The notes beneath the pieces are model-generated. The model was not told the DNA's origin and searched no databases. It saw only the letters and a program-made list of their open reading frames with translations. Position numbers and translations under genes: made by a program. From assembly GCA_031278455.1 (NCBI GenBank), contig JAITKJ010000006.1, forward strand, positions 5,704-69,703: a stretch of 64,000 nt of DNA, given 5' to 3'. The DNA is from Puniceicoccales bacterium. GTDB lineage: Bacteria; Verrucomicrobiota; Verrucomicrobiia; Opitutales; JAIRLM01. This document shows positions 651-64,000 of this stretch, one piece after another. Positions within the stretch are counted from its first letter, which is position 1. The number at the start of each line of letters is the position of its first letter.

Positions 651-963
651 TCATCTCGCATCAAGTGTTTTGCATGAAAATTTGCAAGCTAACTTGCGCC
701 AACCAGTTTTAGATGGCGCAAAGTCTGTTTTGCATAAAAATTTTCGAGGTACCCATTTTTTGCTTTTGGCGATTATCCCATCGAATGTCCACCAAAAAGC
801 CTATCGCTTACAATGGCTAATTTGAATCTCTGCCAAATAGACACCGCAATTCTCGCATTTGTGAAAATTTATTATTTTTTTGCTTGAATTGCAGCGCCAC
901 ACAAAATCATCATGCGGGAATGACAGATGGATTTACGCACGAATCCGCGGCGGGCGCGTGGAT

Positions 964-1032
964 GGGCTCCTGAACAAAATCATCTATCCTTTTTCAAGTC
1001 TAGTTGATTTTGTTCAGGAGTCCATTTTTTTT
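964..1032 (+). terminator. Intrinsic-terminator-like hairpin (19-bp stem, 22-nt loop, T8 tract) with no CDS upstream on this strand
   Basis: 964-982 (GGGCTCCTGAACAAAATCA) pairs with 1005-1023 (TGATTTTGTTCAGGAGTCC) with one G:U pair. It is followed directly by A-TTTTTTTT (1024-1032). Confidence 0.6.
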
Positions 1033-1143
1033 GTAAAAATCAGATTACTTCGAAAAGTTTTTCATTAATAAACTAAAAAGCCCTGCTGTTCAAGAGACAA
1101 AAATCTTCTCATTTGCGGCAAAAGCGTGTAGGGAACCTAGACC

Positions 1144-2355
1144 GTGCGAGGGGTTGGGCTCAAAGGCTGGGAACGAGACTGGATCAATCCAGTTTGCATA
1201 GTCCTGTTAGTATTCATGGGCGTGATGTCCATTCGATCGGCGCAGCTCGCGATTCACGGCAGCCAATGGCGTGGGCAGCTGATTTGGTTCCTGCTAGGGG
1301 CCGCGTGCTATTTGCTATGCGCCCGGTGGCATTATTCGGTTTTTTTACGCTACGCACACTGGATTTACCTCCTCGGGATTTTTTCCCTGTTGATGCTTTG
1401 GTCGCCATTTGGCCTGCGCCGCTATGGTGCGTTGCGGTGGATTGGGCTGTTTGGTCTCTGCGTTCAACCGGCGGAGTTTGCGAAGTTTTCAACGCTGATT
1501 ATGCTGGCGGGAACGCTGACGGGGGCCAAAATGGGGCCCATTCGCGAATCGAAGTCACCGCTCATACAAGCATTTGTGATTTTCGCCATTCCGTGGTTTC
1601 TTATTTTCCTGCAGCCGGATCTAGGCTCTGCGCTCATCCTGCCGCCCATTCTTTTGGCCATGCTCTACGTTTCCGACCTATCCAGTCGCTTTTTTTTGGT
1701 CATTTTTGCCCTCGGAATCCTCGCGCTCAGTGCGGTTACCTGGGATCTTTATCGCTACCGCAACTTTTTAGACGCAAATGACCTTTCCCCGGGCGAGCAT
1801 GCGGGACTTTATCAAAAACACTCCTGGTTCCCGCTGAAGGACTATCAGCGAAATCGCATCATCGGATTCATTGCCCCGGAGCTGGTGGATCCGCAGGGAA
1901 CGGGAATTAGCTGGAACCTGCGCCAGTCACTTATCTCCATCGGATCCGGTGGATTTTGGGGCAAGGGGTACGGAAACGGCATGCAGGCGCAACTGGGCTA
2001 TTTGCCAAAGGCGGTATCGACAAATGATTTCCTGTTTTCCGTGCTCGGCGAGGAACGGGGGTTTCTTGGGGCATCGGCAGTGCTGTTGCTTCTGAGCACG
2101 CTCGTAGGAAATACCTTTCGCATCGCCGGCCTGGCCCACGACCGCTTTGGCCGCTATTTGGCCGTGGGCATTGGGGTGTTTTTTCTCATGCACATGCTGA
2201 TTAACACGGGAATGACCCTTGGCCTCATGCCGATTACCGGCGTGCCCCTGCCATTTTTGAGTTACGGCGGGAGTTTCCTTATCGTATGTTGCATTTTGCA
2301 AGGAATCGTGCAGAGCGTCTATCGGCGGCGGCGTAACGTGGACCGCGAGGGATAG
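1144..2355 (+). CDS. rodA: SEDS-family peptidoglycan glycosyltransferase (RodA/FtsW/SpoVE)
   Basis: 403-aa polytopic ORF with GTG start. Motifs QPDLGSALIL and SIGSGGFWGKGYGNGMQAQLGYLP...NDFLFSVLGEERGF are typical of RodA/FtsW; the IGSGG..GKG form is closer to RodA. Confidence 0.8.
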   Translation: MRGVGLKGWERDWINPVCIVLLVFMGVMSIRSAQLAIHGSQWRGQLIWFLLGAACYLLCARWHYSVFLRYAHWIYLLGIFSLLMLWSPFGLRRYGALRWIGLFGLCVQPAEFAKFSTLIMLAGTLTGAKMGPIRESKSPLIQAFVIFAIPWFLIFLQPDLGSALILPPILLAMLYVSDLSSRFFLVIFALGILALSAVTWDLYRYRNFLDANDLSPGEHAGLYQKHSWFPLKDYQRNRIIGFIAPELVDPQGTGISWNLRQSLISIGSGGFWGKGYGNGMQAQLGYLPKAVSTNDFLFSVLGEERGFLGASAVLLLLSTLVGNTFRIAGLAHDRFGRYLAVGIGVFFLMHMLINTGMTLGLMPITGVPLPFLSYGGSFLIVCCILQGIVQSVYRRRRNVDREG

Positions 2356-2381
2356 GGTGGAAATGAAAATTTTTGGTATTT

Positions 2382-4046
2382 ATGAAAAACTCTAACAATT
2401 CACCGTGCCAAGATTCAGGATCGTGCGGAGAAAAAATTGACGAACGGGAGCTCAAGGACGGCTCGAAGGAACGGGCAAAGGACCAGTCGCTCCTCCAGCG
2501 CATCATAAAAGGTTTAACCCGCAGTGACCGGAAATTTCGCGAAATCGTCATTAGCCGCCAGCTGGGCATAACCCGCGTCGCCGTGCTCATCGACGGCATA
2601 ATGGAAAATTTTGAAACGGATGCGTACCGGGGCGCGGACCTGGTCGGAGCCATTTTCAAAGGACGCATCCAAAAGCTGGAGGATGGGCTGAAAGCGGCTT
2701 TTGTCATCACTGGGCAGGAGAAAAATGCATTTCTTCATTACTGGGACATGCTCCCGGCGGCCAATGATAGCTTTGAAGTTATCACTAAAGACCCGGCAAA
2801 ATCTAAAATTACCCCGGATGACATTCCCCGCATGTATCCGGTTGGTACGGAAGTTTTGGTACAAGTTTCAAAAGCCCAAATGGGAACCAAGGGTGCCCGG
2901 GTCACCACGAATATCACTATCACCGGCCGCTATCTCATACTCACCCCATTCAATGGACAGTGTGGCATATCGCGAAAGATCGAGGATGAAAAGGAACGGG
3001 AGCGGCTCAAGGGCATTTTGGAAAAATTAGCCGTCCCCAGTGGCATGGGAATCGTCATCCGTTCCTCTGGAGCAGAAAAGAAGCTGAAGTTTTTCATGCG
3101 CGACCTGTCCATCTTACTTTCCCGATGGAAGGCCATTTCAAAAAAATCGAGTGAAATGGAAAACATGGGATTGGTCTATCGGGAGCCGGGACTCATTGGC
3201 CGGTCTGTTCGGGATTTTCTGACCGATGACGTGGACCACATCGTGACCGATTCGCCGCAGGTTTTTGACGAAATCGTTTCCGAAATCAATGAAATCGCGC
3301 CGCAGCTGCGGGGAAAGGTGGAACTCTATGAAGGTGATGCGCCGATTTTGGAACATTTTAATGTCGAGATGCAGATACAGCGCACATTCAGCCGGCGCCT
3401 ACCCCTGCCGTCCGGTGGAGAAATTGTTTTGGAGGAAACGGAGGCGCTCATCGCCATAGATGTAAACACAAGCTCGCACAAGGCCGCAAAGGATGATGGG
3501 AAAAATCTCATCCTACAGGTTAACCTGGAAGCCACGAGGGAAATCGTTCGTCAAATGCGGCTGCGAAACCTGGGCGGGCTTATCATCATCGACTTCATCG
3601 ACATGAAAAACAAGGCCGACCAGAAACAAGTTTTTGATGCCATGCAGGAGTTGATGGCCCAGGACAGCGCCAGGTTTCAAATTTTACCCATTTCGCCCAT
3701 GGGAATCATGCAAATTACCCGACAGCGCCATTCCCAAAGTATGAGCCGGGAGATGCGCATTTGCTGCCCCTATTGTTCTGGTCGGGGGACTGTCCAGTCC
3801 CCACAGGCCACGGCCATGGTCCTTCAACTGGAAATTTTACGCACCCTCGGCAAATTGCGCAAGGATGGTAACGACGGTCGCACGCGTACGTTGAAAATTT
3901 TTCTCCATCCGCACGTATTAGAGGTTCTCCGGCAGCAAGGGCGGCAAATTCTCGAAAATTTGGAGGATGCCTACGGTGCCAGACTTTTTTTCCAGGGGGA
4001 CGAAACTTCTCATCTGGAGAGTTATAAAATTCTCAAAGAAGTTTAA
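2382..4046 (+). CDS. rng: Rne/Rng-family ribonuclease (RNase G-like)
   Basis: Has an S1-like N-terminal region and the catalytic core LIAIDVNT...GLIIIDFIDM characteristic of RNase E/G. The ATG at 2382 is preferred to the TTG at 2373. Confidence 0.85.
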   Translation: MKNSNNSPCQDSGSCGEKIDERELKDGSKERAKDQSLLQRIIKGLTRSDRKFREIVISRQLGITRVAVLIDGIMENFETDAYRGADLVGAIFKGRIQKLEDGLKAAFVITGQEKNAFLHYWDMLPAANDSFEVITKDPAKSKITPDDIPRMYPVGTEVLVQVSKAQMGTKGARVTTNITITGRYLILTPFNGQCGISRKIEDEKERERLKGILEKLAVPSGMGIVIRSSGAEKKLKFFMRDLSILLSRWKAISKKSSEMENMGLVYREPGLIGRSVRDFLTDDVDHIVTDSPQVFDEIVSEINEIAPQLRGKVELYEGDAPILEHFNVEMQIQRTFSRRLPLPSGGEIVLEETEALIAIDVNTSSHKAAKDDGKNLILQVNLEATREIVRQMRLRNLGGLIIIDFIDMKNKADQKQVFDAMQELMAQDSARFQILPISPMGIMQITRQRHSQSMSREMRICCPYCSGRGTVQSPQATAMVLQLEILRTLGKLRKDGNDGRTRTLKIFLHPHVLEVLRQQGRQILENLEDAYGARLFFQGDETSHLESYKILKEV

Positions 4047-4135
4047 AGATCTTGGACAACTGCAATTGCTTTCATGCTCTTTTTGCCAAACAACATTGCA
4101 GAAAAATTTCACATTGACAAAGTTCTTCTAATGTT

Positions 4136-5254
4136 TTGAAATTTCCGTTCATGCCAGGAACAATTGGAGCCGTGCGAAGTTCGCCACTTGCACCTCCGAA
4201 GCACCAATTAGCACCAACTAATAGCGTAACGACCGCCAGGATTGTTGCTTCGGTCATAGGCGCCATACCCATTGCCATCATTGGCATACCAATCCGCTTG
4301 GTTTGGCTGGTTGTTATTTTAGTGAAAAGTCTTTATTTATTTGCCATTGGGCGCGCTATGGAGGCTTCCAATTCCTTGGAATGTTATTGGAAAAACACGG
4401 TCACTTTAATTTTGCTGCCATATAGGATTTATTCGTTCCTTTCCCCAGTCCGCCGCAATGTTACGAACTCGCCGAATTTCGTTAATCTTGCCGCCGCTGG
4501 CGGCAAGGGCAAACCAGAGATTCCCAAAGAGTTTAACCCCACGAGGGTAAGGGTCATCGGCACGGCTGCAAAATTTTCTGAGGATATATGGAATTTTACA
4601 GGTGATACGAGCCAAACAACGTGGCCCAACATGAACGGTGCCACGTGCAGAGAAATGGATCACAACTTTACCAAAGAAGAAGCCGAGGCGGCTGGAATCA
4701 TTGATCCGCACCCTAACGATCCTCGTCCAATTCGCCCGCTATTTATTGGTATTCGGGGGACGTGTAATCGATTAGAAGTGCTCGAATGCGTGTACAATTT
4801 TTTCGGCGGCCGCGCAGAAAATTTTGCCCCGATCGAAGCCTTTGTGGCAAAAGCACAGGAAGAAATTAACAGAAAAAATGCCACCCAGACCGCATATCGT
4901 TATGTGCCCGTCCTGGTTGGCCATTCAATGGGTGGCGCATTTGCATCTGCCATCGCAGTCAAAGAGGGTATATCTTCAATTACTTTTAACTCAATGGGAT
5001 GGGGTTCAGAATTGTACGAAAATGTCGGAGATTCTGCGATTCGCAAGGCTGCAACGGCCGGCAATCCAGGTAATATCGAAATAAGCGTCGCTGGCTGCCA
5101 TGTATCTGATCCAAACGCATTTATTTTTCAAAAGATGCCCGTGAAAACCTTCCATTTGCCAAATTGTACAGAGTCGGCACATATACACATGTGCGTTGGC
5201 CATACATGGAGGACTTATTGCCAACATGCAGGACTGATTCCAGCGAATCACTAG
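4136..5254 (+). CDS. Membrane-anchored alpha/beta-hydrolase, class-3-lipase-like
   Basis: Paired hydrophobic segments IVASVIGAIPIAIIGIPI-R-LVWLVVILVKSLYLFAIG near the N-terminus. The C-terminal domain has the nucleophile elbow VLVGHSMGGAFA, plus later Asp (VSDPNAF) and His (ESAHIHM) candidates. Confidence 0.65.
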   Translation: MKFPFMPGTIGAVRSSPLAPPKHQLAPTNSVTTARIVASVIGAIPIAIIGIPIRLVWLVVILVKSLYLFAIGRAMEASNSLECYWKNTVTLILLPYRIYSFLSPVRRNVTNSPNFVNLAAAGGKGKPEIPKEFNPTRVRVIGTAAKFSEDIWNFTGDTSQTTWPNMNGATCREMDHNFTKEEAEAAGIIDPHPNDPRPIRPLFIGIRGTCNRLEVLECVYNFFGGRAENFAPIEAFVAKAQEEINRKNATQTAYRYVPVLVGHSMGGAFASAIAVKEGISSITFNSMGWGSELYENVGDSAIRKAATAGNPGNIEISVAGCHVSDPNAFIFQKMPVKTFHLPNCTESAHIHMCVGHTWRTYCQHAGLIPANH

Positions 5255-8036: not shown

Positions 8037-9554
8037 CTAAAAATGACAAGCCATCATCGAGCTTTTTAGTTCATGCTTTCCCTCTGAATCGCAAATGGCC
8101 GATGTGAAAGCCATCCCATATGCATGGGCGCAGTGTGGAGCCGTAATTCTTGCTGGATTTTTTTTCGCATAATCATCTATGAATTTTTCAGAGATCATGA
8201 GTCCAGCATTAATTTCCATGGTCCCATTTCCGCTTATGTCAAAGTTGAGTGTGCTTGTGCGCACAGCGTGACCTTTGATATTATTGCTATAAGCTCCCGC
8301 CACCGCAGCATTTCCGTCGTCCAATAGTTCCATGTGATATGCTGACATTGGACGGCTACATTCCCCTTGCATGTAATGAAATCGGCATACTGCCTTAAAT
8401 GCATTTAAGGCCTGTTCTGGGCTGAGACCGGAATCTTTCAACTTGCATAAGATAAATTTTGCGGCGGTTTTCCCATCACTCCTCTTATCTTTTATATACT
8501 CATCCATATTTATAGGGATTCCATTGATTTTTATAATGATATGCTTGGACATGCGGTTAATGTCGCTAAAAAGCATATGTGTCCCAATCTTGTCGCTTAT
8601 TTCTTCCAAATAGCTGTTGAAAATTTCGGTGTTTTCAAAAAATTTTGCCCCACCAGGCATGGGATCCGCTGTTAAAGCCGCGATGGCAGATTCGCCCACA
8701 AGAGCATCATTACTTTTGCGGGACACGCGGTCGGAAAAGCTTCTTACTGAATACTCAGAATGTTGTAAATAGTCATTCATGTTTAAATTGGTAAACTTCG
8801 TTCCACCGACGGTATTAGCGCATAAATCCTCGAAAAACTCCGACTCAAGCTCCATGCCAATCTTGCACGCGCCAAGAAGTGCCGCCATGGCTATGTCTCC
8901 ATTTTTTGATGCCAAGGCGCGAAGAATAATTATCTGGGCATCGGGGGCTTGTTTTTTAATAAACTCGACCATTCCGGAGTTTGGGTCCAAAAATTGCTGC
9001 CGAATCTCTTTGTGGCCATTTGGTATTTTTTCTCCGGCACTTTCACGTGCCCTACTGCCCAAATTCGCAATAGCAATAAGCGCATCCTGAGGAGATTGCA
9101 TAGTGGCGACTGTTTTTGCCCCATTGAAACATTCAATTGCAGTATCGCGGAGCTCATCATTCCGGCAAATTTCAGCATTAACCGCTTGCTCGTGAACTGC
9201 GCGGCTTTCTGGAAACAGACGCGATATTTTTTGCGCCCATGGACCCTTGGTATGGTCAATTGTTAACATGTCCGTAATTGAAGAGGTAATAGATGGCATT
9301 ATTTTGCTGAAAAATTTTTCTACGCACTGCGGCATGATGCATGAACACCATTCTTTAAAGCAATTGACTATCTTCTGAAAAATCTCTTTTCTTGTTGACG
9401 TTTGCGGCGAACTACACTTTGTTTCCACATGCTGCGTCGAATTGTTAGAGGTTATTGTGCGCGAATTGTCAACTACCGCTTTAGGCTGAGACGCCTCAGC
9501 GGTAGCGACAGGTGGACTGAATCCAGTCCCAACATACGGAGGCATTTTTATCAC
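8037..9554 (-). CDS. Hypothetical protein (505 aa), no recognisable domain; candidate secreted effector, co-oriented downstream of the USP-like gene
   Basis: Long uninterrupted ORF with a Ser/Thr/Pro-rich, probably disordered N-terminus and no TM segments. It lies about 150 bp downstream of 9706-11337 on the same strand. Confidence 0.6.
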   Translation of the reverse strand: MIKMPPYVGTGFSPPVATAEASQPKAVVDNSRTITSNNSTQHVETKCSSPQTSTRKEIFQKIVNCFKEWCSCIMPQCVEKFFSKIMPSITSSITDMLTIDHTKGPWAQKISRLFPESRAVHEQAVNAEICRNDELRDTAIECFNGAKTVATMQSPQDALIAIANLGSRARESAGEKIPNGHKEIRQQFLDPNSGMVEFIKKQAPDAQIIILRALASKNGDIAMAALLGACKIGMELESEFFEDLCANTVGGTKFTNLNMNDYLQHSEYSVRSFSDRVSRKSNDALVGESAIAALTADPMPGGAKFFENTEIFNSYLEEISDKIGTHMLFSDINRMSKHIIIKINGIPINMDEYIKDKRSDGKTAAKFILCKLKDSGLSPEQALNAFKAVCRFHYMQGECSRPMSAYHMELLDDGNAAVAGAYSNNIKGHAVRTSTLNFDISGNGTMEINAGLMISEKFIDDYAKKNPARITAPHCAHAYGMAFTSAICDSEGKHELKSSMMACHF

Positions 9555-9705: not shown

Positions 9706-11337
9706 TTAACTCGAGTCTGCTTTACTTTTTGAGTAAATTAACATATATGCATTCATTTTATGAGTTCCGTCACCGCATAAATCAGATATTTCAGCATCTG
9801 TACACCATCGAACGTAACTGTCGTTCATTGCTTGCATCTCGCCACCGACGACTTGAAAACACTCATAATGCCCAGAGTCAGGCCCTCCATGATGGCTGAC
9901 AACACTCCTTAACTCATAGGGCACATCTCCTTCTATTGTTGGTATGTCGAGATTCCTGCCGAAATCAAATTGGTTGTTATCTTTTTGCCCACTTTTGCTG
10001 AATCTATTTATAAGAAATATCAGATAATTCGGACAGCCAAAAATTTTTATTTCCTTCAGGACCTGACCATATTGATTGTCTTCAAGCCGGTAGTCGACCG
10101 TCGTACGAGACCATGCGCCAATGCCATTGGGAAGATCTTTCGCCTCTACATCAACGGGTATACAGTTTGATCTGTCGTCAGAACCCATGACAAATTGTTC
10201 TCCACATGGCCGCCCATCAGCAAGTCGGCACCCAAGCACTTGGTAGGCAACCGTAAATCCATGATTGACTTTAACCGGACAGGCTAGATCCCCTTTCGGC
10301 AAATAGACTTCCGCATCAGCAAGCACCGCCACTTCGTCATTCGTTATGTCGCCGTTGGCTAGTGCTTCATCCACTCGATTATTAGCATCTTTTTGGGACA
10401 TTGCGGCACAACATTCTTCAATATGCCTTAAAAGCGTAATCGTAAATTCATGAGCATCGCACTGCATGCTCGACGGCTTGTTCCATACATTGCGCTCAGC
10501 CAATATGGCTAAAAAAGCTTGCATCAAATCCTCCGAATGCTCTACCGGCCTAGTTCCATAAATGTGTCCAAAAATCTCGCCCAGGAGACGGATAACATAA
10601 AATTTGTTGTCTCCATGAAACACTTTTGCCAAAACTTTAACAATGGCGTGAAAGCGAGGGCAGTTGGCAAGGGCTTGTAGGGTCGCGTTCATGTAACACG
10701 TTGCGCCGAGATTTCGGAGCCCATACACTGGACGCGGATTTGGTGTTGGGTCTGGTGTGGGATTTGGTTGTGGGTCTGGTGTGGGATTTGGTTTTGGGTC
10801 TGGTGTGGGATTTGGTTTTGGGTCTGGTGTGGGATTTGGTTTTGGGTCTGGTGTCGGATTTGGTGTTGGGTCTGGGGTTGGATTTGGTTTTGGGTCTGGT
10901 GTCGGATTTGGTGTTGGGTCTGGGGTCGGTTCGGGTACTGGTTTTGCCTCTTGCTGCGGAATAATAGTCGACGCTTGTTTCTCCTGCTTTACCGTCAAAT
11001 TTTTCGTATGTCTAGCCCGTCCCAGAAACGAAAAAAAGATTTGCGACAGCGGGATCTTATTAATTTTGCAGTAAATGCCGAATACACAAAGATAAATAAA
11101 TCCGACGGCAAAAACAATGGCTAAAATTGTGGTTGCGCCGTTACATGCCGCAAAAGCGCTCCATTCGCACTTGGTAACGCAAATACGGCATAAATTCGAA
11201 ATCTCAGAAACGGCCCGACTTGACAGCCCGAAATAGCTCAATGGGGATATAACGCATGCCATACAAAACGAAGCGGACATTATACAACACTCCACCAGAC
11301 CATCCAAAGGCCATTTGCCGATTAGAGGGCTGGACAC
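9706..11337 (-). CDS. Membrane-anchored USP-family (peptidase C19) ubiquitin-specific protease-like protein
   Basis: Cys box [16 protein letters not shown] (Cys214), His box [18 protein letters not shown] (His490) and the downstream MNDSYV element. N-terminal hydrophobic segments (residues ~20-40, ~66-105) and a ~70-aa PxPxPx spacer (residues 132-202). Confidence 0.85.
10732..10944. repeat. Imperfect tandem repeat, 24-bp unit (about 8-9 copies), in-frame within the USP-like CDS, encoding (PNPTPDPK)n
   Basis: The plus strand reads GGGTCTGGTGTGGGATTTGGTTTT iterated with point variants. The repeat also creates the three spurious + strand ORFs at 10701-11124. Confidence 0.9.
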
Positions 11338-12958: not shown

Positions 12959-14701
12959 TTATCGCTTGCGCGGGAGAGGTTTTTGGGACATCGATTTTCG
13001 GCCAACGTATTCTGCCACCTTTTTATTATGCGCTTCAATTAATTCTCGATTACGTTTCTGTGCAGCCACCTCTTCTTTTTGACTTTCTCGTAGCGATTTT
13101 CCGACAGCCATCTCGCAGAGTGCAGCCCCGGTCCCAACCGGATTAGTTGGATCATACTTAACCCATTCACTTGTCCGAACCAAATGGTCGTCCTCTGTCC
13201 CGGCTAATGCAAACCAAATGTTGCCGTTCGTGTCAGACATACTGATTGTTGGCAGTGCAATCCCGCATGTGTTTTCGCCAAACTGCACGGGCAGGAAAAT
13301 CCATCCAGTTAGAACGGAAAATATTTTTTCATGCATTTCGCGCAAACTGTCTTGCGGCAAATTCTTAAAAAATTTTAAAAAAACATCCACAGCTTGACGA
13401 TCGGCTTTTATGACCGCCCAAACCGATCGATCTACATCCACGTTGTCTCCTGGAAGTGCGATGCCACGCGACATCTCCGTTTCGTTCTTTGTGCCTGAAG
13501 TGATACCGCTAACAACTTTGTCAATATATGGATTCGTTTTAAGAATTTCTTGAATTTCTTCTGGAATCGGCAACCCTCCGATTGTTTGGTCTTGTTCCTT
13601 AATTGTGATGCGATCTACGCATCCGTATCGTCGAAGTAGATCCATGCCAGTTTGCGGTGAAACGGGCACTGGATGTTCTCGAAGCTCAGCTGTGGCCGCA
13701 TGTCTACATGCTTCGACCTGAGCTTTCACCTTTCCAATATTTTCTTTTTTGCCTTCACTATCTTTGAATGTTTCTAGATCTATCATAGCCAATGGGTCTA
13801 CGGGAAAAGGAAACATTCCAGCAACCTGCTGCGCTTGATCTGCTGTTTTGACGGTCTCTTCGCGCAAAATTTTCAGCGAAGCGTCTTTGTACTGGACGTT
13901 TCGATCAACTGCCGAACCGTCGGTTATTTTCAGAATGGTTTGCGTAACTCCGCTTACAGGAGGTATCGGTTCCATGTGAATGACATCATCAAATTTGCCG
14001 AAGAGATAATCTTTGACGTTCTGAATTGTAGCCAAGATGAGATCAAAAAATGCGAGAACTTCAAAATTGAGGCACTCCTGTCTTTTCAAACGCATGATAG
14101 CGTCTGCGGCACGAATAGCAGCGCCAACAAGTTGCGGCACCTCCTTTATTGACAGAAGCTTCTCCAGGTACTTTGTGACCGCATTGCCATATTTTTTTTC
14201 GTCTGCCGCTCGAGTGGCAAGAGCACTGGTTAAATCGAATACAATTTGTTTTATATTGCTTCCTGCCTCACCAAGTTGCAGGCAATTTAAATCAATTTGT
14301 TTAAGAAGCTCTATCGCGACACCGCAACGCGTGATCGTTTTTAATCCATTTATTACTATAGATGGAAACGTCCAAATATCCCTTTTTTTGACATAAGTAA
14401 AAACAACTGGTGTTGCAAATGCTAGCATCGCGAGCAATGCCCCAAAAGATCCGATTCCAGTAGAAAAAGTAAGGATATATCCAACGATTGGAATCGATCC
14501 AATGGGAAGGACGGTAAAGACAATTCCAAGAGATGAGAAAAACCCAAGGGCAAGAATGGCGATAACAAAACAACGCCCAGCATTTGTTTGGGTGGCAAAA
14601 TTCCAACAGAAATCTAAAAAAGTCGGCCTATTCAGTGCAACAACTGCTGACTTTGTTAGATCATTCGTCAAATCTTGAGGATATGCCGGCTTGAAAACCA
14701 C
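12959..14701 (-). CDS. Hypothetical membrane protein (580 aa) with an N-proximal cluster of hydrophobic helices and a large unknown soluble domain
   Basis: Hydrophobic block CFVIAILALGFFSSLGIVFTVLPIGSIPIVGYILTFSTGIGSFGALLAMLAFATPVVFTYV, followed by ~450 aa without recognisable motifs and a basic C-terminal tail. Confidence 0.65.
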   Translation of the reverse strand: MVFKPAYPQDLTNDLTKSAVVALNRPTFLDFCWNFATQTNAGRCFVIAILALGFFSSLGIVFTVLPIGSIPIVGYILTFSTGIGSFGALLAMLAFATPVVFTYVKKRDIWTFPSIVINGLKTITRCGVAIELLKQIDLNCLQLGEAGSNIKQIVFDLTSALATRAADEKKYGNAVTKYLEKLLSIKEVPQLVGAAIRAADAIMRLKRQECLNFEVLAFFDLILATIQNVKDYLFGKFDDVIHMEPIPPVSGVTQTILKITDGSAVDRNVQYKDASLKILREETVKTADQAQQVAGMFPFPVDPLAMIDLETFKDSEGKKENIGKVKAQVEACRHAATAELREHPVPVSPQTGMDLLRRYGCVDRITIKEQDQTIGGLPIPEEIQEILKTNPYIDKVVSGITSGTKNETEMSRGIALPGDNVDVDRSVWAVIKADRQAVDVFLKFFKNLPQDSLREMHEKIFSVLTGWIFLPVQFGENTCGIALPTISMSDTNGNIWFALAGTEDDHLVRTSEWVKYDPTNPVGTGAALCEMAVGKSLRESQKEEVAAQKRNRELIEAHNKKVAEYVGRKSMSQKPLPRKR

Positions 14702-17003: not shown

Positions 17004-18227
17004 TCACGTCGCGATTACTTCGCCGGCGGTAGGCACATTGGATTCATCATTGGAGAGTATGGCGCTTACGACGTCATGCATATTCGCGCACGGAGGATCA
17101 GGCAATTTAAAACGCTGCCCAAAAACGCCTGGATTCTGATAGCCCGTAAGAAACGTCAGCGGGAGGTCGGCAACATTTGCAAATTTTTGCAGACGGGTTT
17201 GCAGCTTTGGCATGATGAAACTATAAACCTGGGTAGCGTTTTTTGCCATCCGCGCCTGGCCAATGATTTGCTGGTGGACAGGACCTATTCCATAGGGGTT
17301 GTAGCAAAATGCTTTGCATCCGTATTTTAGCCCAAGAAATTGAGCGAACATGCCTTCAATGTAGCTTCCAGCTGGAATGACGTCGTCTCCATAAGCCATC
17401 AACACATTTTGAAACGCCGCATCGAAAGCTTCTGTGCGCGCATCTTGCCATGGGCATGCGGCGCAGGCCAAAGCAGCCAGCCGTTCCGAACGGTTTGTGT
17501 CAAGCGTGGGAAGGAAGTACGTGGCACCATTTTGCTCAACGGCGATTGCAAAACCAATGCCCAAAGCGGCGTTTTCGAATCGATGAACGGCGATATCCTG
17601 GCCGTTGTCGAGTGTGACCGCGCTTGAGCCGCCAACAAACTCGAACCCAGCCTTTTGAAGAGCAATTTGCTGATTGGCAAGTTGATTTGGCCAGGTGCGA
17701 TTTTGTGATACGGGCTGGCTTTTCCCATGGGCCAATTTTTCACAAAGTTCGCTCGTAAATCGAATGTGTTTCTTATCCTCTGCGGAAAAGTTGCTGGCAT
17801 GAAACGGTATTGGGTCAAGCTGATAACCTGTTTTTTTGAAGGCCGCTTCCGGATCTCTGCTGGCAATTTTGTAGGCAATAAGTGAGAGCACGACAGATAA
17901 GGCCAACAATCCCGCGCTGATGATCCAGCCGATTGGCCCAGAAAGAATTGCAACACCGATTCCCAAAAATTTGAGAACCAAAAAAATCATATTGCTAGCG
18001 ACGGAAATGCCTGTGAGTACCCAGTTCAAAGTATTCCGCACCGTGCTCGATAAGCTTTTTTCGCTTTGTAATAAATTCATGACTGGGATATATCCCGTGA
18101 TACCGCGTGCGTCCGTTGCGCCTAACTCGAGTTTTGTGCTTTTATTTTGCGGTGCCGCGCCAATAGTATAGGGCGTGTCTGTGGAGCGTGCAATCATTGG
18201 TTGCGTGAATTTTAATGAGGCAGGCAA
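17004..18227 (-). CDS. Hypothetical membrane protein; apparent paralogue of the 4136-5254 lipase-like protein with a degenerate nucleophile motif
   Basis: Paired hydrophobic helices LNWVLTGISVASNMIFLVLKFLGIGVAILSGPIGWIISAGLLALSVVLSLIAYKI. The C-terminal AGSYIEGMFAQFLGLKYGCKAFCYNPYGIG aligns by eye with VGHSMGGAFASAIAVKEGISSITFNSMGWG, and FKLPDPPCANMHD with FHLPNCTESAHIH. Confidence 0.6.
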   Translation of the reverse strand: MPASLKFTQPMIARSTDTPYTIGAAPQNKSTKLELGATDARGITGYIPVMNLLQSEKSLSSTVRNTLNWVLTGISVASNMIFLVLKFLGIGVAILSGPIGWIISAGLLALSVVLSLIAYKIASRDPEAAFKKTGYQLDPIPFHASNFSAEDKKHIRFTSELCEKLAHGKSQPVSQNRTWPNQLANQQIALQKAGFEFVGGSSAVTLDNGQDIAVHRFENAALGIGFAIAVEQNGATYFLPTLDTNRSERLAALACAACPWQDARTEAFDAAFQNVLMAYGDDVIPAGSYIEGMFAQFLGLKYGCKAFCYNPYGIGPVHQQIIGQARMAKNATQVYSFIMPKLQTRLQKFANVADLPLTFLTGYQNPGVFGQRFKLPDPPCANMHDVVSAILSNDESNVPTAGEVIAT

Positions 18228-18284: not shown

Positions 18285-21029
18285 TCACTGGACCCATCGA
18301 AAAGATCGCATTTGGAGTTTCCCGTCGGCCATGCGTTGGACGATGGCTTCGCAGACGGCTTTGGTAAATACGGTGCCGTCAACCGAATTTACAGAATCTC
18401 CGTACCCGCGAATGGAAAAAGTATCCGAGCGGACGACAAACTGATTGCCAAAAAATTGCAAAAAATCCGCCTGTGTGACAAAGGCCGGTGCTTGTGCATT
18501 TGTTGGACCATTTGCCGAGAGAGAGTCAAACCACGCTCCTTCGCGTAGATCCGTCGATTGGGCGGAAAAATTTTCCAAGTCTTCATTTATTTTGGATTTA
18601 TCAATGGCCCGCTGAATCAGTCCCGCTTGTGCCGCTTCGCCAAGGGATAGTTCCCGATTGATAAAGGCGCTCAAAGTCGGGAACGGTCCACATTTTTGGA
18701 TCTCTCCAACAATACATTCGGCTAATCGATCTAGGTCGTCTTCGGATAAAAAATGCTGCCGCTGGAATCGAGACCCCAGCGTGCTTTGGCTGTTAAAACG
18801 CGGCAAATAGTAAGCCCGCCGTCCGGAATCATATGGCATGCATCGGAGGAGCAGCTTCCACGTTTCCACGGAGGTGCAGTTGACGTTGAAGGCGCCTTCA
18901 AGGACGAGATCGCGAGCGATTTGAGTGCAATCGTAAAAATTGCCTCCAGGTCCCCATGGCCGACATGTGGTAAAAAATTGAGGCACATCTGCATCAAATC
19001 CGCTGAAACCGCTGACAAAATAATGGTCGTAAAGGGCTTCGTTGAGGAGATGTGAATAATCGAAGAGCATGGATTGGCGGAAATAGGCGTGGTTTTTCCA
19101 AAGATCCACTGTCGATGCGTAATGGTGAAAAATCTCATCGAGTGGCATGAACGGGCAGGCAAGGCTATTACCTACGGCATATGCCGGATGATAGGAAAAT
19201 GGCGCCAGCGACACATGTTGGAGAAAACCAATGGAAAGCAATTCGCGGGGCAGGTCGAATAAAACGGCCGACGCGGAACCGTCTCCGAAAAACCCAGGAA
19301 ATTGAACCGCAGGTGCTAAATTGTAAAATTGTGCCGTCCAAGGAGCGAAGTAGCGGCGAAAAGGTCCTGATAAACCAAGCAACGACGTATGTTCAAAGGT
19401 ACTGCGTCGGAGTTGCGGTGCCCGCGGATCGTAATGGGCCAGCCACTGATTGGTACCAGTCCCGAGATTGGCCCAGGCCAAGAAAGAAAATAGCTCATGA
19501 GGTTTGCCGTCCCGCGGAACCTCGTAGGACTGGGTTTCATCCCAATCAACAAAATCGCTGATTTCCTGCAGTAAATTTCCATCAGCATCCAAAAGTCGCA
19601 TGGAAAGATTAAACCAAGAGACTGCGCCAGTCATGGAATTGACCCGTTGAATGGTAATCGCCGGCACCTCTTTCAATAAATTGAGCGTAACGGCCGCCGT
19701 CAGATTTGGGTCGTCAATGGTAAAGGTACGCACTTCGCCGGCGTTTAATCCGGTTCGTATTTCACTCTGGAAAATAATTTTTGCGCTATTGTCACCAAAT
19801 CGGATGAGTGTTTTGTTGCCAGCCGCCGTTTCCACCAGGAAGCCGGGCAGCGTTCCAGCCGAGTTAGTTGGAGACGCAGAAAGCAGCTGAAACACGTACG
19901 TGCTTGGCAGAAATGGTACGTTGTATGGATTCCAAATGGAGACCGTCGGCGACAGGCGGATAATCGCCTGATTGGCACCAACTTCGGCAGAAACGGTTAT
20001 GAATAGGGCAACGGGAATGGGATAAATGCCGCTTTGGATCGGAATGTTAAGTCCAAAATCCGGCTTAGACAAATCTCCCAATTCGTAATTAAGCGCATTG
20101 GTTGCCGGATAAACGATGCGGTAAACAGGGCCGCCGGCACACGGGTAAATGCCAGATAGGGACATGGATTTTGTTGCATGGAAGAACGATGCCACCTGAT
20201 TGAAGGTCGGCGGTGGTTCCGGATAGAACGGATCTCCGGGAAAGATATACTCCACATTTGAGGATGGAAATTTTTGCAATTTCAGCGTCAGGTCCCGCAG
20301 CCATTCGCCGGCGGTATTTTTCAGCAAGCAGCGGCCGCACAGCGTCAAATTATGGAAAAAGCTGTCAAATTCTCTGCCGAGATTCCGTTGCAACGATGAA
20401 AATGAAAGGCAGTTTTCCAGCGACTGCATCTTTTCGAAATTAAGACTAAGTGAATTGGGGTAAAATTGCTGTAAGATGCGATCTTGTGGTAGGGGTGAAA
20501 AGGGAAGATTGATACGCAGTTTGTCGCATTCGTCCTCCACCCAATAAGCAAAGTGTCCTACGGTTTTCCCGCTAAAATTTATGGGCAACCGCGGGCATTT
20601 GTCAACGAGCTCAAGGTCATCGAAAATGGCCACCTCATCCCCAGCAATGTCCCGTGGAGCATCTTTTTGAAAGCGTATATCTCCCGAAAGCGATACCAAC
20701 CAACGGTTAAAGACCGGTTTGCCGGCGACGATAGTCCAAACTCCCGTCCAGTGGGCATGGGCTTCGGAAATTTCTTCACCACCACTTCTCGCACGCGCGG
20801 TGACGCAACATCCTTCATTGTAGATTTCATTTAGTTCAAGCATTGCGGCTCGAAGAGCCGTCCAAGCGTTTTGCCGGGCGATGTCTCGATGCAGTTGATT
20901 TTGCGTCCTCAAGGTTTGAATGCGGACGAACCGTTCCGCGGTCATCATCAGTGCGCCAAGTACCGCTAGTGCCCCTAACACCAATAACAGCGCAAAACCA
21001 TCCGAACGTATACTCCGCACGATGCGCAA
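18285..21029 (-). CDS. Large (914 aa) GspK-like minor-pseudopilin-related protein, no adjacent secretion or pilus genes
   Basis: N-terminal short basic leader plus hydrophobic helix SDGFALLLVLGALAVLGALMM, a GspK-like YWVEDECDKLRINL element, and C-terminal FVVRSDTFSIRGYG...AVCEAIVQR resembling the GspK C-terminus. The functional call is tentative. Confidence 0.55.
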   Translation of the reverse strand: MRIVRSIRSDGFALLLVLGALAVLGALMMTAERFVRIQTLRTQNQLHRDIARQNAWTALRAAMLELNEIYNEGCCVTARARSGGEEISEAHAHWTGVWTIVAGKPVFNRWLVSLSGDIRFQKDAPRDIAGDEVAIFDDLELVDKCPRLPINFSGKTVGHFAYWVEDECDKLRINLPFSPLPQDRILQQFYPNSLSLNFEKMQSLENCLSFSSLQRNLGREFDSFFHNLTLCGRCLLKNTAGEWLRDLTLKLQKFPSSNVEYIFPGDPFYPEPPPTFNQVASFFHATKSMSLSGIYPCAGGPVYRIVYPATNALNYELGDLSKPDFGLNIPIQSGIYPIPVALFITVSAEVGANQAIIRLSPTVSIWNPYNVPFLPSTYVFQLLSASPTNSAGTLPGFLVETAAGNKTLIRFGDNSAKIIFQSEIRTGLNAGEVRTFTIDDPNLTAAVTLNLLKEVPAITIQRVNSMTGAVSWFNLSMRLLDADGNLLQEISDFVDWDETQSYEVPRDGKPHELFSFLAWANLGTGTNQWLAHYDPRAPQLRRSTFEHTSLLGLSGPFRRYFAPWTAQFYNLAPAVQFPGFFGDGSASAVLFDLPRELLSIGFLQHVSLAPFSYHPAYAVGNSLACPFMPLDEIFHHYASTVDLWKNHAYFRQSMLFDYSHLLNEALYDHYFVSGFSGFDADVPQFFTTCRPWGPGGNFYDCTQIARDLVLEGAFNVNCTSVETWKLLLRCMPYDSGRRAYYLPRFNSQSTLGSRFQRQHFLSEDDLDRLAECIVGEIQKCGPFPTLSAFINRELSLGEAAQAGLIQRAIDKSKINEDLENFSAQSTDLREGAWFDSLSANGPTNAQAPAFVTQADFLQFFGNQFVVRSDTFSIRGYGDSVNSVDGTVFTKAVCEAIVQRMADGKLQMRSFRWVQ

Positions 21030-21176: not shown

Positions 21177-21539
21177 ATGGATGCAATGAGGAATTTCGCG
21201 GAAAAAGTTGCGACAAAATTTGGCGCCTCTGCCGACAGCGTGCAATACATCACGCGCCTAGTTACTAATAAGATTATGCTTATAAGTGTTGCGACGATAG
21301 CTCTTAGCAGCATATTATTTTCTCCGTTTTTTCCACTCTATTGGCTCACACTTGCTGGGTCCGTTGTCGGAATCGTGACATCCGTTCACCAAACGGATAA
21401 GGCAATCGAAGCGGAAAAAGCGCATCCAAACCCTGAAAAAACATCGACCGCAAGCAGCGCGGGGGTGGCTAGTTCTGAAAATACATGGGATTGGTCGAAT
21501 ATTTCCTTGTCCAAGATTCTCTCATCGATATTGTCATGA
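21177..21539 (+). CDS. Small (120 aa) membrane protein with paired hydrophobic helices
   Basis: IMLISVATIALSSILFSPFFPLYWLTLAGSVVGIVTSV, followed by a Ser/Ala-rich tail. It overlaps the psd stop convergently by 6 nt. Confidence 0.5.
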   Translation: MDAMRNFAEKVATKFGASADSVQYITRLVTNKIMLISVATIALSSILFSPFFPLYWLTLAGSVVGIVTSVHQTDKAIEAEKAHPNPEKTSTASSAGVASSENTWDWSNISLSKILSSILS

Positions 21540-26955: not shown

Positions 26956-27834
26956 ATGAAGCGCTGGTTGGTGGCTGGTTTGGCGTTGTTTGCTCCGTTT
27001 TGTGCCTCTGCGTCTGTAGCAGTTGTATCGCAAATGTCAGAGGTGAATAGTGAGGTTGCCAAGATTGCCAAAACTGTTTCGCCGCGAGACATTTGGGTTG
27101 TCTACGACATTGACATGACCCTGACAAAGCCAGAACATCCAGCCGTTGAACTGGCCAATCTGCAGTGTCACCACCAGGTGTTGGGGGAGATTTTCGCTAA
27201 TACGACGCGCGAACAGAAGGAATTAGCCAAATACCTCGCAGTCGGGTTGTATCCCGGGGCAACAACGGAAAAAAAGACGGCGAAATATGTCAAGAATTTG
27301 CAAAAATTGGGCGTCGTATCCTTCGCCCTGACGTCGGCAAAGAGTGGAAATATTACGCTCAGGGACTCGACAAAACCCATCTATGAGATCCGCCCACAGG
27401 AGCTCAACGCACTTGGAATTCACTTTGGAGGAGCATTTCCATTTGAAACTTTATTTTTGAAAAAATTTCCAGCGGATGGGGGTAGCTTTCCAACTTACAA
27501 CCAGGGCGTTATTTGTTCCAATGAAAAGCCGAAAGGGGCCGTACTTTGCGCGTTTATGGACGAAATTAAAGCCACACCAAAGGTGATCGTTATGGTGGAT
27601 GACCGGCTGCATAATTTGCAAGAGACGAGAAAAGCCCTCCGCGCGCGCTACCCGAAGGTCCGCTTCGTTGCCTTCGAATATACAGGAGCCACGCGTGATC
27701 CAAAATCGATAAAAGAAATTTCCGCTGATGAATTTCGTGCTTTCTGGGAACCAATCGCCGTACAGGCCAAAAAAAATTGCCCAGCCCCACAGCCGCCGCG
27801 TCATGCCGGAAAAAGCTTCGCGCCAATTAGGTGA
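26956..27834 (+). CDS. Secreted HAD-superfamily phosphatase-like protein (DUF2608-like)
   Basis: Signal peptide MKRWLVAGLALFAPFCASASVA. HAD motif I VVYDIDMTLT (DxDxT), motif II LTSAKSG and motif IV VMVDDRLHN. Confidence 0.65.
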   Translation: MKRWLVAGLALFAPFCASASVAVVSQMSEVNSEVAKIAKTVSPRDIWVVYDIDMTLTKPEHPAVELANLQCHHQVLGEIFANTTREQKELAKYLAVGLYPGATTEKKTAKYVKNLQKLGVVSFALTSAKSGNITLRDSTKPIYEIRPQELNALGIHFGGAFPFETLFLKKFPADGGSFPTYNQGVICSNEKPKGAVLCAFMDEIKATPKVIVMVDDRLHNLQETRKALRARYPKVRFVAFEYTGATRDPKSIKEISADEFRAFWEPIAVQAKKNCPAPQPPRHAGKSFAPIR

Positions 27835-36801: not shown

Positions 36802-37490
36802 CTACTCAACTTTTACGCGTTGCCGCGCGACCATCATGTTAAATATTCCTTTGATCATGCACAGAATGGGCGAGTCAGATTTATTTTTTCGAACAATATG
36901 TATGCAGTTGGCATGAACATTGTGAATTCCCTGATATCCAGCATCAGCTATAATTCGAACATTCGGAGCCGGCATTTCTCCCTCCTTAAAAATCCTGAAA
37001 TCATACACGGAGCCCAGAACTGAACGGGACACGTGTAAAATGCAGCCGCTGGATGTAACGCGAATCTCCGTTTTAATGGTATGCTGCTTCTTTTTTACGG
37101 AGTAAAACGCCCTTTGCTCGCATTGAGGCCGTTCGATAGGCGTCTCGGGAGCATCAATCATGAGCTGTTTCACTTTTTCAGGCGTCAGATACAGGTTCTT
37201 TGAAATTCGGGTGAGCCCAGCCAAAAGTGGTTCCATCCATGTGATAATGCGACAAACTGTGGATGTGCCGACGTCAAAGAAATAGCCGACGACCTCCATG
37301 GTCATGTTGGCTCGTAAGTGCAGCAATTTTTCTTGATTCCGGCAAACGCGATCGGGGTGGTTTTTTGTATTTTCATGCCACCTTTTTCTTCCAATTTTCG
37401 ATAGAAATCACTTCTTTTTTTTGAAGATATTTTTGGCGGATCGACTTTTCCAAGAAGTCCATTGTCAGAAATTGGCGCGTATAAACTCAA
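36802..37490 (-). mobile_element. IS5-family (HTH_Tnp_4 + DDE_Tnp_4 type) transposase remnant, frameshifted and truncated
   Basis: Has LHLRANMTMEVVGYFFDVGTSTVCRI (HTH), IDAPETPIERP, FYSVKKKQHTIKTEI, SVYDFRIF, ADAGYQGI and ...RQRVKVE*. The N-terminal part is split over at least 2 frames around an A8 run, and the C-terminal ~40 aa are missing. It abuts the pgi stop. Confidence 0.75.
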
Positions 37491-63215: not shown

Positions 63216-64000
63216 ATGTTGGCTATATCGCCTAACGGCCGAGCAGATGCAAATTGCCATTTTTCAACGGCAGACCAATCGCTAATATCGCCCCTACTCA
63301 ATGGGGTCGCCACGGCATCATTTCCAATTTTTAAAAAATTTCTAAGCGTACTGCTTTGGTTGACGCTCATTGTGCCAATATTAGCCTTTATTCACAAAAA
63401 GATCACCGGTAGGATGTCAGCCGTCTGGGCGTTTCTGCTCTGGCAAAACAGAACATCGTCGAAGCAACCAGCTCCGCATCCGCCAGCACCTCTGTCCACA
63501 GAACCTGTTCATACGACGTCAACATCTGGCGAATCTCCAATCACTTCCCCTGCGTCCAAACTTGATGAACCTCCGCCCATTTCTCCGGCGCAAGAACCTG
63601 ATAAAATTTTTCCAGCCACCGATGTTTCTGTCATTGACGTTAACCAGGGACCTTTTCTTGCTAAAATAGAAGCACTCCTCGATGCAACTTCGCTGGATTC
63701 GGAAACTAAGAAGGCGATACTCGCGAACGCAAAATGGATGGTTGACCACAATTGGCGATTAAATTTTATCGAAAAATTCATAACTATTTCCATCGAAATG
63801 GAAAATAACGGTCTTTTCAATAAACTACCTAGAGATCTCGCGCCGCAAAAATGGTTTTTGGTTCCAAAAGCGCACAAAAAGCAGAATAAAATATTGATAT
63901 CAAGAGGCCGTAGCATGTATGGCCTTTGGAAGAAAAGTTATCTTAAGTCAATGGAAAAGTGCAAGAACAATTATAGAAAATTTTTAGCCACCAAAAATCT
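63216..64000 (+). CDS. Hypothetical membrane-anchored protein, 3'-partial (runs off the window); absent from the ORF track
   Basis: Manual translation from the ATG at 63216 is open to position 64000: MLAISPNGRADANCHFSTADQSLISPLLNGVATASFPIFKKFLSVLLWLTLIVPILAFIHKKITGRMSAVWAFLLWQNRTSSKQPAPHPPAPLSTEPVHTTSTSGESPITSPASKLDEPPPISPAQEPDK... That gives two hydrophobic segments, a Pro/Ser/Thr linker, then a Lys-rich domain. Confidence 0.6.
   Translation, partial: MLAISPNGRADANCHFSTADQSLISPLLNGVATASFPIFKKFLSVLLWLTLIVPILAFIHKKITGRMSAVWAFLLWQNRTSSKQPAPHPPAPLSTEPVHTTSTSGESPITSPASKLDEPPPISPAQEPDKIFPATDVSVIDVNQGPFLAKIEALLDATSLDSETKKAILANAKWMVDHNWRLNFIEKFITISIEMENNGLFNKLPRDLAPQKWFLVPKAHKKQNKILISRGRSMYGLWKKSYLKSMEKCKNNYRKFLATKN

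Follow-up and report, generated by a model that had tools for sequence, protein, structure and literature searches.

Chlamydial inclusion-membrane (Inc) proteins are defined by a short leader, an N-proximal bilobed hydrophobic block and a soluble C-terminal domain (PMC6925127). Here we describe a gene whose product has the same layout, located at positions 4136-5254 of a 64,000-nucleotide stretch of contig JAITKJ010000006.1 from a Puniceicoccales bacterium (hereafter the window), and we tentatively read this product as a lipase-like enzyme directed at a eukaryotic host. Like the Incs, it is one member of a multi-member, fast-diverging, lineage-specific repertoire. The bilobed block of Incs is roughly 40-60 residues long, and that of our protein, with 37 residues, stands at the short end. 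It departs from the Incs in coming from a verrucomicrobium, in lying within a window where no type III secretion system (T3SS) was seen, and in having a first lobe whose hydrophobicity on the Hessa scale is no more than marginal. To our knowledge Incs rarely carry a hydrolase domain, and we found no literature on Inc-like proteins in Verrucomicrobia.

Cdu1 (ChlaDub1) of Chlamydia trachomatis, a CE-clan (Ulp1-like) deubiquitinase, is carried behind an N-terminal hydrophobic anchor and displayed towards the host cytosol. An analogous anchored deubiquitinase is encoded by a neighbouring open reading frame (ORF) in the window, but it belongs to the USP/UCH family rather than to the CE clan. PlaF of Pseudomonas aeruginosa is an inner-membrane phospholipase A1 (PLA1) held by a single helix and encoded by a conserved single-copy gene. 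It acts on membrane glycerophospholipids, and its layout, in which an N-terminal membrane helix is followed by a juxtamembrane helix and an alpha/beta-hydrolase phospholipase domain, resembles that of our protein; the two show no sequence relation in a profile search of the PDB (E up to 1), however, and our family is expanded.

The best solved relative of our protein is Tle of Enterobacter cloacae (7UBZ/9CYS), a PLA1/PLA2 whose triad is Ser341-Glu393-His448 and whose fold resembles that of fungal lipases (PMC11470151). Both proteins have an N-terminal delivery region ahead of the catalytic domain. They differ in that Tle has no hydrophobic hairpin, that its acid Glu393 is matched by Cys321 with a nearby Asp325 in our protein, and that Tle is accompanied by the Tli immunity gene and by type VI secretion system (T6SS) genes, neither of which was seen in the window. 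Class 3 lipases (PF01764) share with our protein the GxSxG elbow and a His near the C-terminus, and with the wide family a GDxV-type acid after a strand. The Asp of that motif is Cys in our protein, which scores below the gathering threshold for this family.

Gene model, membrane anchor and catalytic domain

The ORF comprises 372 codons from a TTG at 4136, with an alternative ATG at 4151 that corresponds to residue 6. Seven homologues (33-68% identity) were recovered from a search of 5.8 billion proteins. All of them conserve the leader length, the hydrophobic block, the juxtamembrane helix and the GHSMGG motif, and the arrangement of leader, hydrophobic block and GHSMGG domain claimed in a preliminary description of this DNA is therefore real. 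The profile of this close family also aligns from position 33 onwards with P0020, a distant protein from a metagenome-assembled genome (MAG), which implies that the architecture is kept there as well. The public JGI call for our protein (P0001, 318 aa) begins at Leu55 (nucleotide 4298), which removes lobe 1. Such a start is unlikely, since the residues upstream of it are conserved as protein in the homologues, and it is probably a start-site miscall. Because the leader length and both lobes are conserved, we regard the long ORF as the better gene model. A DUF502 gene converges on ours and lies 10 bp downstream, and scans for promoters and terminators around the gene gave results at chance level.

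The leader (residues 1-35) was modelled as disordered by AlphaFold2 (AF2), with pLDDT below 50. We found no Sec signal peptide or lipobox in it; a cleavable Sec signal peptide or a lipoprotein is excluded, the N-terminus being polar over 35 residues. Its lack of acidic residues and its richness in S, T and P are compatible with a secretion signal, but not diagnostic of one. The hydrophobic block that follows occupies residues 36-72 (37 aa, or 43 aa with its uncharged flanks), and lobe 1 bears a proline that is conserved mid-block in all subfamilies with a hairpin. In every one of these subfamilies a proline is centred in an apolar block of 36-48 residues (for instance IIGIPIRLV, WVLVPIVAI, VLFSPAIAG and ILSGPIGWI), which is followed by a conserved Trp-containing helix. 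It is from the block length and this central proline that we infer two helices in the anchor of our protein. The fusion of a proline-centred hairpin and juxtamembrane module to this catalytic domain appears to be new.

An AF2 model of the protein, built on an eight-sequence alignment (pLDDT 77, pTM 0.72), shows strands alternating with helices, as is usual in an alpha/beta-hydrolase, and GHSMGG sits in it between a strand (residues 255-263) and a helix (265-277). Over 37 distant relatives, the only invariant columns are G262, S264 and G266. The intact nucleophile elbow and hydrolase fold proposed earlier are thus borne out by the strand-elbow-helix arrangement and by the conservation of Ser264 and His351. 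After the strand that succeeds the nucleophile helix, the wide family carries a G-D-(W/F)-V-S-D motif, whose first Asp we take to mark the place of the catalytic acid in class 3 lipases. Asp occupies this position in 29 of the 37 aligned sequences, and Cys in our protein and five of its seven close homologues. Every Cys-bearing member possesses Asp325, and the single close homologue without Asp325, P0006 (GDWVSGP), has the canonical Asp. Such reciprocity suggests that the acid has moved and not that the site is decaying, and a relocation of this kind would appear to be new.

The catalytic domain itself is already known, as a divergent member of a known superfamily that is weakly catalogued by a recent Pfam model. 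Precomputed matches to PF26363 ('Phospholipase-like') occur in P0001-P0004 and P0007 and are weak (E 1e-5 to 1e-3). Against the rest of Pfam, our protein gave elbow-centred matches below threshold to Abhydrolase_6 (17.4 bits, cut-off 26.3), Abhydrolase_1 (13.0, cut-off 25.8) and PGAP1 (13.1, cut-off 24.3). Neither of the two families named as candidates in the preliminary description was recovered: Lipase_3 (PF01764) reached 16.0 bits, below its gathering score of 22 (E 0.012, residues 236-274 only), with matches at E up to 0.01 in 6 of the 37 family members, and DUF2974 (PF11187) matched none of the eight proteins of the close family, even with the E limit set at 10. By sequence profile, the best solved relative is 7ubz_B (E 1.3e-3, covering GHSxGG and the next TFNxxG motif), and by Foldseek it is 9cys_A (E 6.6e-5, probability 1.00), the sole match below 1e-3. 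When the wide-family profile was used against the PDB, the Tle match was lost and the elbow match alone was left. We consider it probable that the domain is a serine hydrolase, and see an even chance that its substrate is a lipid. Given the fold, the conservation of Ser and His, and a tether close to the membrane, the most likely chemistry is that of a membrane-lipid esterase, either a phospholipase A or a lipase.

A lineage-restricted family and its members in the window

A family profile search over 1.84 billion cluster representatives returned 147 clusters with E values of 1e-3 or lower, 49 of which reach 1e-10 or lower, and taxonomy was looked up for 30 of the 147. All 15 named bacterial members in this sample come from MAGs of Puniceicoccales (14) or Opitutales (one, K2L13); 16 distinct locus-tag prefixes are represented, counting those of a close homologue of our protein and of the window's own MAG. 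A chlamydial origin of the gene is contradicted by this taxonomy. Homologue searches with the 37-sequence alignment returned almost solely the close family already known, while the family alignment found no relative in the GTDB representative genomes and one remote locus (L006) in metagenome contigs.

The family also has a eukaryotic member, P0036, which is Tritrichomonas musculus KAK8841701.1, encoded on a 1.4-Mb contig and labelled 'Fungal lipase-like domain-containing protein' in UniRef. Further members, including P0035, P0025 and P0037, are encoded on contigs of 60-240 kb and resemble the T. musculus protein over their own full length. Between the bacterial and parabasalid proteins, the soluble N-terminal domains show no homology by BLASTP and the catalytic domains alone align. 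These sequence relationships suggest gene exchange between the bacteria and parabasalid protists.

Across the family, the catalytic domain is found behind at least three N-terminal designs: the proline-centred hairpin, a single hydrophobic helix, and a soluble domain of 250-430 residues. Members with the soluble N-terminus have no signal peptide and no hairpin. The hairpin occurs in 16 of the 147 representatives (P0002-P0008, P0014, P0015, P0020, P0024, P0032, P0039, P0046, P0064 and P0075). Paralogues are found in tandem (P0003 and P0004, positions 672-4947 of locus L004), as two copies on one contig (L001, 3-317 and 5299-6411, with a second, partial paralogue at the contig end), and as several copies per MAG. 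Their genomic context is not conserved, as the window, L001, L003 and L004 all differ. A Pfam match to 'FliO' near the L003 homologue was considered as a sign of a T3SS and rejected as a weak single-helix match. Altogether, the family is restricted to the Puniceicoccales/Opitutales lineage, multi-copy and fast-diverging; its N-terminal modules are interchangeable, and it includes inactive paralogues.

One such paralogue is encoded in the window itself. The ORF at 17004-18227 (P0176) is 100% identical to LBD72_00440, and the protein is conserved in five other MAG proteins (53-70% identity). The DNA around it was also obtained in an assembly of run SRR14710901. On the Hessa scale its anchor consists of two clear helices, split by SGPIGW. 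Its elbow is degenerate, with GSYIEG in place of GHSMGG, and within the paralogue family the place of the nucleophile is taken by Tyr or His, and the preceding residue is also variable. Its C-terminal block GSYIEGMFAQFLGLKYGCKAFCYNPYGIGPVHQQIIG aligns with GHSMGGAFASAIAVKEGISSITFNSMGWGSELYENVG of our protein. When compared with the wide family by hhalign, the single sequence gave a probability of 90.6% and its six-member family one of 96.6% (E 5e-10, 120 columns), and hmmsearch gave an E of 3e-8; the structure model of the paralogue is poor (pLDDT 47). Judged from these alignments, it is an inactive paralogue on a homologous anchor.

The window also encodes the USP-type deubiquitinase mentioned above. 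It has a hydrophobic block of 33 residues with an extra hydrophobic stretch upstream, a long repeat linker, and an intact Cys box and His box (SGHYECF). All of its PDB matches are eukaryotic (USP8, 12, 14, 15, 18, 30 and 46). A USP deubiquitinase has no substrate in a free-living bacterium, and the presence of this gene strongly hints at manipulation of a eukaryotic host by the organism. The combination of an Inc-style layout with a USP deubiquitinase in a verrucomicrobium appears to be new.

To assess how often the layout recurs, we filtered for ORFs whose only transmembrane-like segment is one hydrophobic block, 36 residues long or more, that begins between residues 13 and 131 and leaves about 40 residues or more behind it. 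In the window, 5 of the 51 non-overlapping ORFs pass (those starting at 4136, 12959, 17004, 21177 and 63195/63216), as against none of 119 ORFs from three 50-kb stretches of E. coli K-12 and none of 14 from an unrelated locus of Coriobacteriia; the Fisher p is 0.002 for the comparison with E. coli and 0.0014 when the two controls are combined. Of the five further ORFs in which the layout had been said to recur, four are among those that pass, and the fifth, the deubiquitinase gene, is less cleanly bilobed.

Proposed roles: host-directed effector or envelope enzyme

Host-directed effectors fit the family better than housekeeping enzymes do because of its lineage restriction, copy number, divergence and swapping of N-terminal modules, and because of the dead paralogue, the members without signal peptide, the eukaryotic homologue and the neighbouring anchored deubiquitinase. 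The reading that we prefer, although we hold it with somewhat less than even confidence, is that the product of our gene is a serine (phospho)lipase tethered to a membrane, and that it belongs to an effector family specific to the lineage and probably aimed at a host. In such a protein, a leader of about 30 residues, disordered and positively charged, would precede an anchor module made up of the 37-residue block, with a central Pro/Arg turn, and the conserved juxtamembrane helix. The anchor would hold a class-3-lipase/Tle-like alpha/beta-hydrolase domain at the membrane surface, where Ser264 and His351, with Asp325 substituting for the canonical acid lost to Cys321, would cleave acyl esters in membrane lipids in the manner of a phospholipase A or a lipase. 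A hairpin would put both termini on one side of the membrane, and the exported enzyme would then face the host compartment, as Incs do. The family would serve as host-directed effectors of protist-associated bacteria, their partners probably being parabasalids. Putatively endosymbiotic Opitutales have been described, among them symbionts of ciliates and Ca. Nucleococcus, which lives inside the nuclei of flagellates in the termite gut (PMC11257099, PMC8204192). Inc-like display of our protein is a plausible and reasonable working model rather than a finding.

Several observations weigh against this reading. In the AF2 model a single helix runs unbroken through residues 33-70, without a turn at Arg54, and only lobe 2 inserts autonomously (Hessa-scale sum of -0.87 kcal/mol over 17 residues); lobe 1 comes to about +2.3 kcal/mol in a hand sum on the same scale because it contains two Pro and two Gly. 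The preliminary description had two adjacent helices separated by a single Arg, of which the two lobes flanking Arg54 stand, and the break between helices finds no counterpart in the AF2 model or the insertion energies. Because of the continuous helix and the negative insertion energy of lobe 2 alone, it is possible that the protein has a type II signal anchor and that its enzymatic domain is periplasmic. Within the catalytic domain, the replacement of the canonical acid by Cys321 leaves the catalytic competence of the protein less than assured, every Pfam hydrolase match is below threshold, as are those to NCBIfam, and the global likeness to Tle is weak (TM-score 0.30/0.39, rmsd 14 A, 15% identity). 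Among the scanned ORFs of the window there is no gene of a T3SS, a type IV secretion system or a T6SS. In L004, the P0003 gene and a Lip_A_acyltrans/Glyco_transf_9 fusion gene overlap at the stop codon of the latter. Finally, the literature yielded no description of the sample behind SRR14710901, SRR14710918 and IMG 3300042590/3300042612 or of any host, and a termite-gut origin would be a guess. The evidence on a lipase or phospholipase effector at a host membrane, as first proposed, is accordingly divided, with the hydrolase fold, the likeness to Tle and the layout enrichment on one side and the sub-threshold Pfam scores, Cys321 and the lack of secretion genes in the window on the other.

Nearly as likely as the effector reading, and in our view a serious if minority possibility, is that the protein remodels lipids of the bacterium's own envelope from the inner membrane, as PlaF does, with glycerophospholipids or lipid A-linked acyl chains as substrates. 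It would do so either from a hairpin with the domain facing the cytoplasm or from an N-in/C-out signal anchor with the domain in the periplasm. A hydrophobic hairpin without a chaperone and an export system defaults to the membrane of its producer, and the window holds no secretion system. The autonomous insertion of lobe 2 alone and the single long AF2 helix fit a signal anchor, and the four to five Cys conserved in the close family could be periplasmic disulfides. The overlap in L004 with a lipid A acyltransferase/heptosyltransferase gene hints at an own-envelope role, and a gene of the same Lip_A_acyltrans/Glyco_transf_9 type lies about 3 kb from the homologue in L001. Housekeeping lipid enzymes, however, are usually single-copy, syntenic and widespread, whereas this family is multi-copy, non-syntenic and lineage-restricted. 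Sister members with long soluble N-termini and no signal peptide also argue against an envelope enzyme, as do the occurrence of the domain in a eukaryote and the absence of PlaF from the PDB profile matches. Moreover, the dead paralogue on its clear two-helix hairpin would put a homologous domain in cis rather than in the periplasm. If our protein were an enzyme of the bacterium's own envelope, the finding would be a modest one, namely a new family of anchored phospholipases with a relocated acid.

Loss of the canonical Asp could instead mean that the protein is an impaired or repurposed pseudo-enzyme, acting as a lipid- or protein-binding scaffold on its anchor. Cys replaces the Asp found in most of the wide family not only in our protein but in most of its close homologues, and the family does yield dead members, such as the paralogue in the window. 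We nevertheless consider a pseudo-enzyme decidedly unlikely: Ser264, the whole GHSMGG motif and His351 are invariant in the Cys-bearing subfamily, whose members share 46-68% identity, and the retention of Asp325 wherever the canonical Asp is lost, with the reverse in P0006, is what would be expected of a relocated acid. Very improbable is an antibacterial T6SS lipase toxin of the Tle type that uses the hydrophobic region as an effector transmembrane domain, for although the E. cloacae T6SS effector is the one solved protein matched significantly, by profile and by fold alike, this likeness is remote (15% identity, TM-score 0.3-0.4), no immunity gene is adjacent (the next gene being the convergent DUF502 gene), the window has no VgrG, PAAR, Hcp or Eag gene, the leader lacks a prePAAR motif (AARxxDxxxH) and the protein a PAAR domain, and no ankyrin-repeat neighbour was found with Pfam in the window or in L001-L004.

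The host-directed effector reading can be extended to a broader proposal, which we regard as somewhat unlikely: that an independent Inc-like effector repertoire exists in protist-associated Puniceicoccales/Opitutales, with a domain shared with their parabasalid hosts. This repertoire would consist of the lipase-like hydrolase, the inactive paralogue and the USP deubiquitinase, carried on proline-centred hairpins and displayed on a host membrane. Its bearers would be relatives of the 'Nucleococcus cluster' of protist endosymbionts, and the lipase-like domain would have been exchanged horizontally with parabasalid hosts. If true, the Chlamydiae would no longer be the only bacteria known to have an Inc-style effector system; this first one outside them would lie in their sister phylum and possibly use a different export route. 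Inc-like display may then have originated independently in that phylum, or may be a strategy shared across the Planctomycetes-Verrucomicrobia-Chlamydiae (PVC) superphylum, and a catalytic domain common to a parabasalid genome would point to possible gene exchange between symbiont and host. Almost no host-interaction factors have been described for verrucomicrobial protist endosymbionts such as Ca. Nucleococcus and the ciliate symbionts, for which the hairpin-anchored family and the neighbouring USP are testable candidates for contact with host membranes and the ubiquitin system.

Feature coordinates and other genes of the window

Table 1. Coordinates in the window of the anchored hydrolase gene, its parts, and the other genes with an N-proximal hydrophobic block.
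Feature	Positions	Strand	Remarks
Anchored lipase-like serine hydrolase (predicted), whole gene	4136..5254	+	372 aa
Polar leader, residues 1-35	4136..4240	+	4 K/R, no D/E; S/T/P/A/Q-rich
Hydrophobic lobe 1, residues 36-53, IVASVIGAIPIAIIGIPI	4241..4294	+	
Arg54 between lobes	4295..4297	+	Arg in 4/7, Cys in 3/7 sequences covering the region
Hydrophobic lobe 2, residues 55-72, LVWLVVILVKSLYLFAIG	4298..4351	+	
Juxtamembrane helices, residues 73-102, MEAxNxLECFWKNSLTLILLPFR	4352..4441	+	Strongly conserved with the anchor
Alpha/beta-hydrolase (lipase-like) domain, residues ~135-372	4538..5251	+	Most 10-residue blocks pLDDT 76-96
Nucleophile elbow GHSMGG, residues 262-267	4919..4936	+	Ser264 at nt 4925-4927
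GCHVSDP, residues 320-326	5093..5113	+	Cys321 at canonical acid position; Asp325 nearby
His351, presumed catalytic His	5186..5188	+	Invariant in close family, at least 90% of wide family (37 sequences)
USP-type deubiquitinase, N-proximal hydrophobic block, PT-rich linker	9706..11337	-	Pfam UCH E 9e-31, whole model
580-aa orphan, hydrophobic block of 62-66 residues (residues 39-104)	12959..14701	-	
Nucleophile-less paralogue, LBD72_00440 (Puniceicoccales MAG)	17004..18197	-	Same anchor type as the hydrolase
120-aa orphan, bilobed block (residues 28-67), SPFFP turn	21177..21539	+	
Partial orphan ORF, N-proximal block: one clear helix, weaker flanks	63216..64000	+	

Besides the three orphans listed in Table 1, the window encodes a 505-aa orphan without a hydrophobic block (8037-9554, minus strand). 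None of these four belongs to a Pfam or NCBIfam family; their GC content at third codon positions (GC3) is 0.39-0.46, and it is possible that they are further effectors. Taken together, our gene and the anchored and orphan genes have a GC3 of 0.39-0.50, compared with 0.51-0.66 for most housekeeping genes of the window (GroEL 0.66, DnaK 0.61), a contrast that we count among the signs of an effector family. Beyond these two, the housekeeping genes include those for RNase G/E, LigA, GlgA, FeoB, phosphatidylserine decarboxylase, ProRS, AspRS, FolD, LptD, an RND pump and signal peptidase.

A 914-aa protein of no family is encoded at 18285-21029 (minus strand). Its first ~60 residues weakly resemble GspK, a minor pseudopilin of the type II secretion system (E 0.003), and constitute the sole secretion-related hint in the window. 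Between 33922 and 35591, a 1.7-kb stretch without any ORF of at least 150 aa adjoins a truncated DDE_Tnp_4 transposase gene (36802-37326, minus strand) and may reflect gene decay or an insertion-sequence remnant. Lastly, the gene at 26956-27834 (plus strand) encodes a protein of the DUF2608 family (Pfam E 8e-25) whose N-terminus bears a hydrophobic segment.

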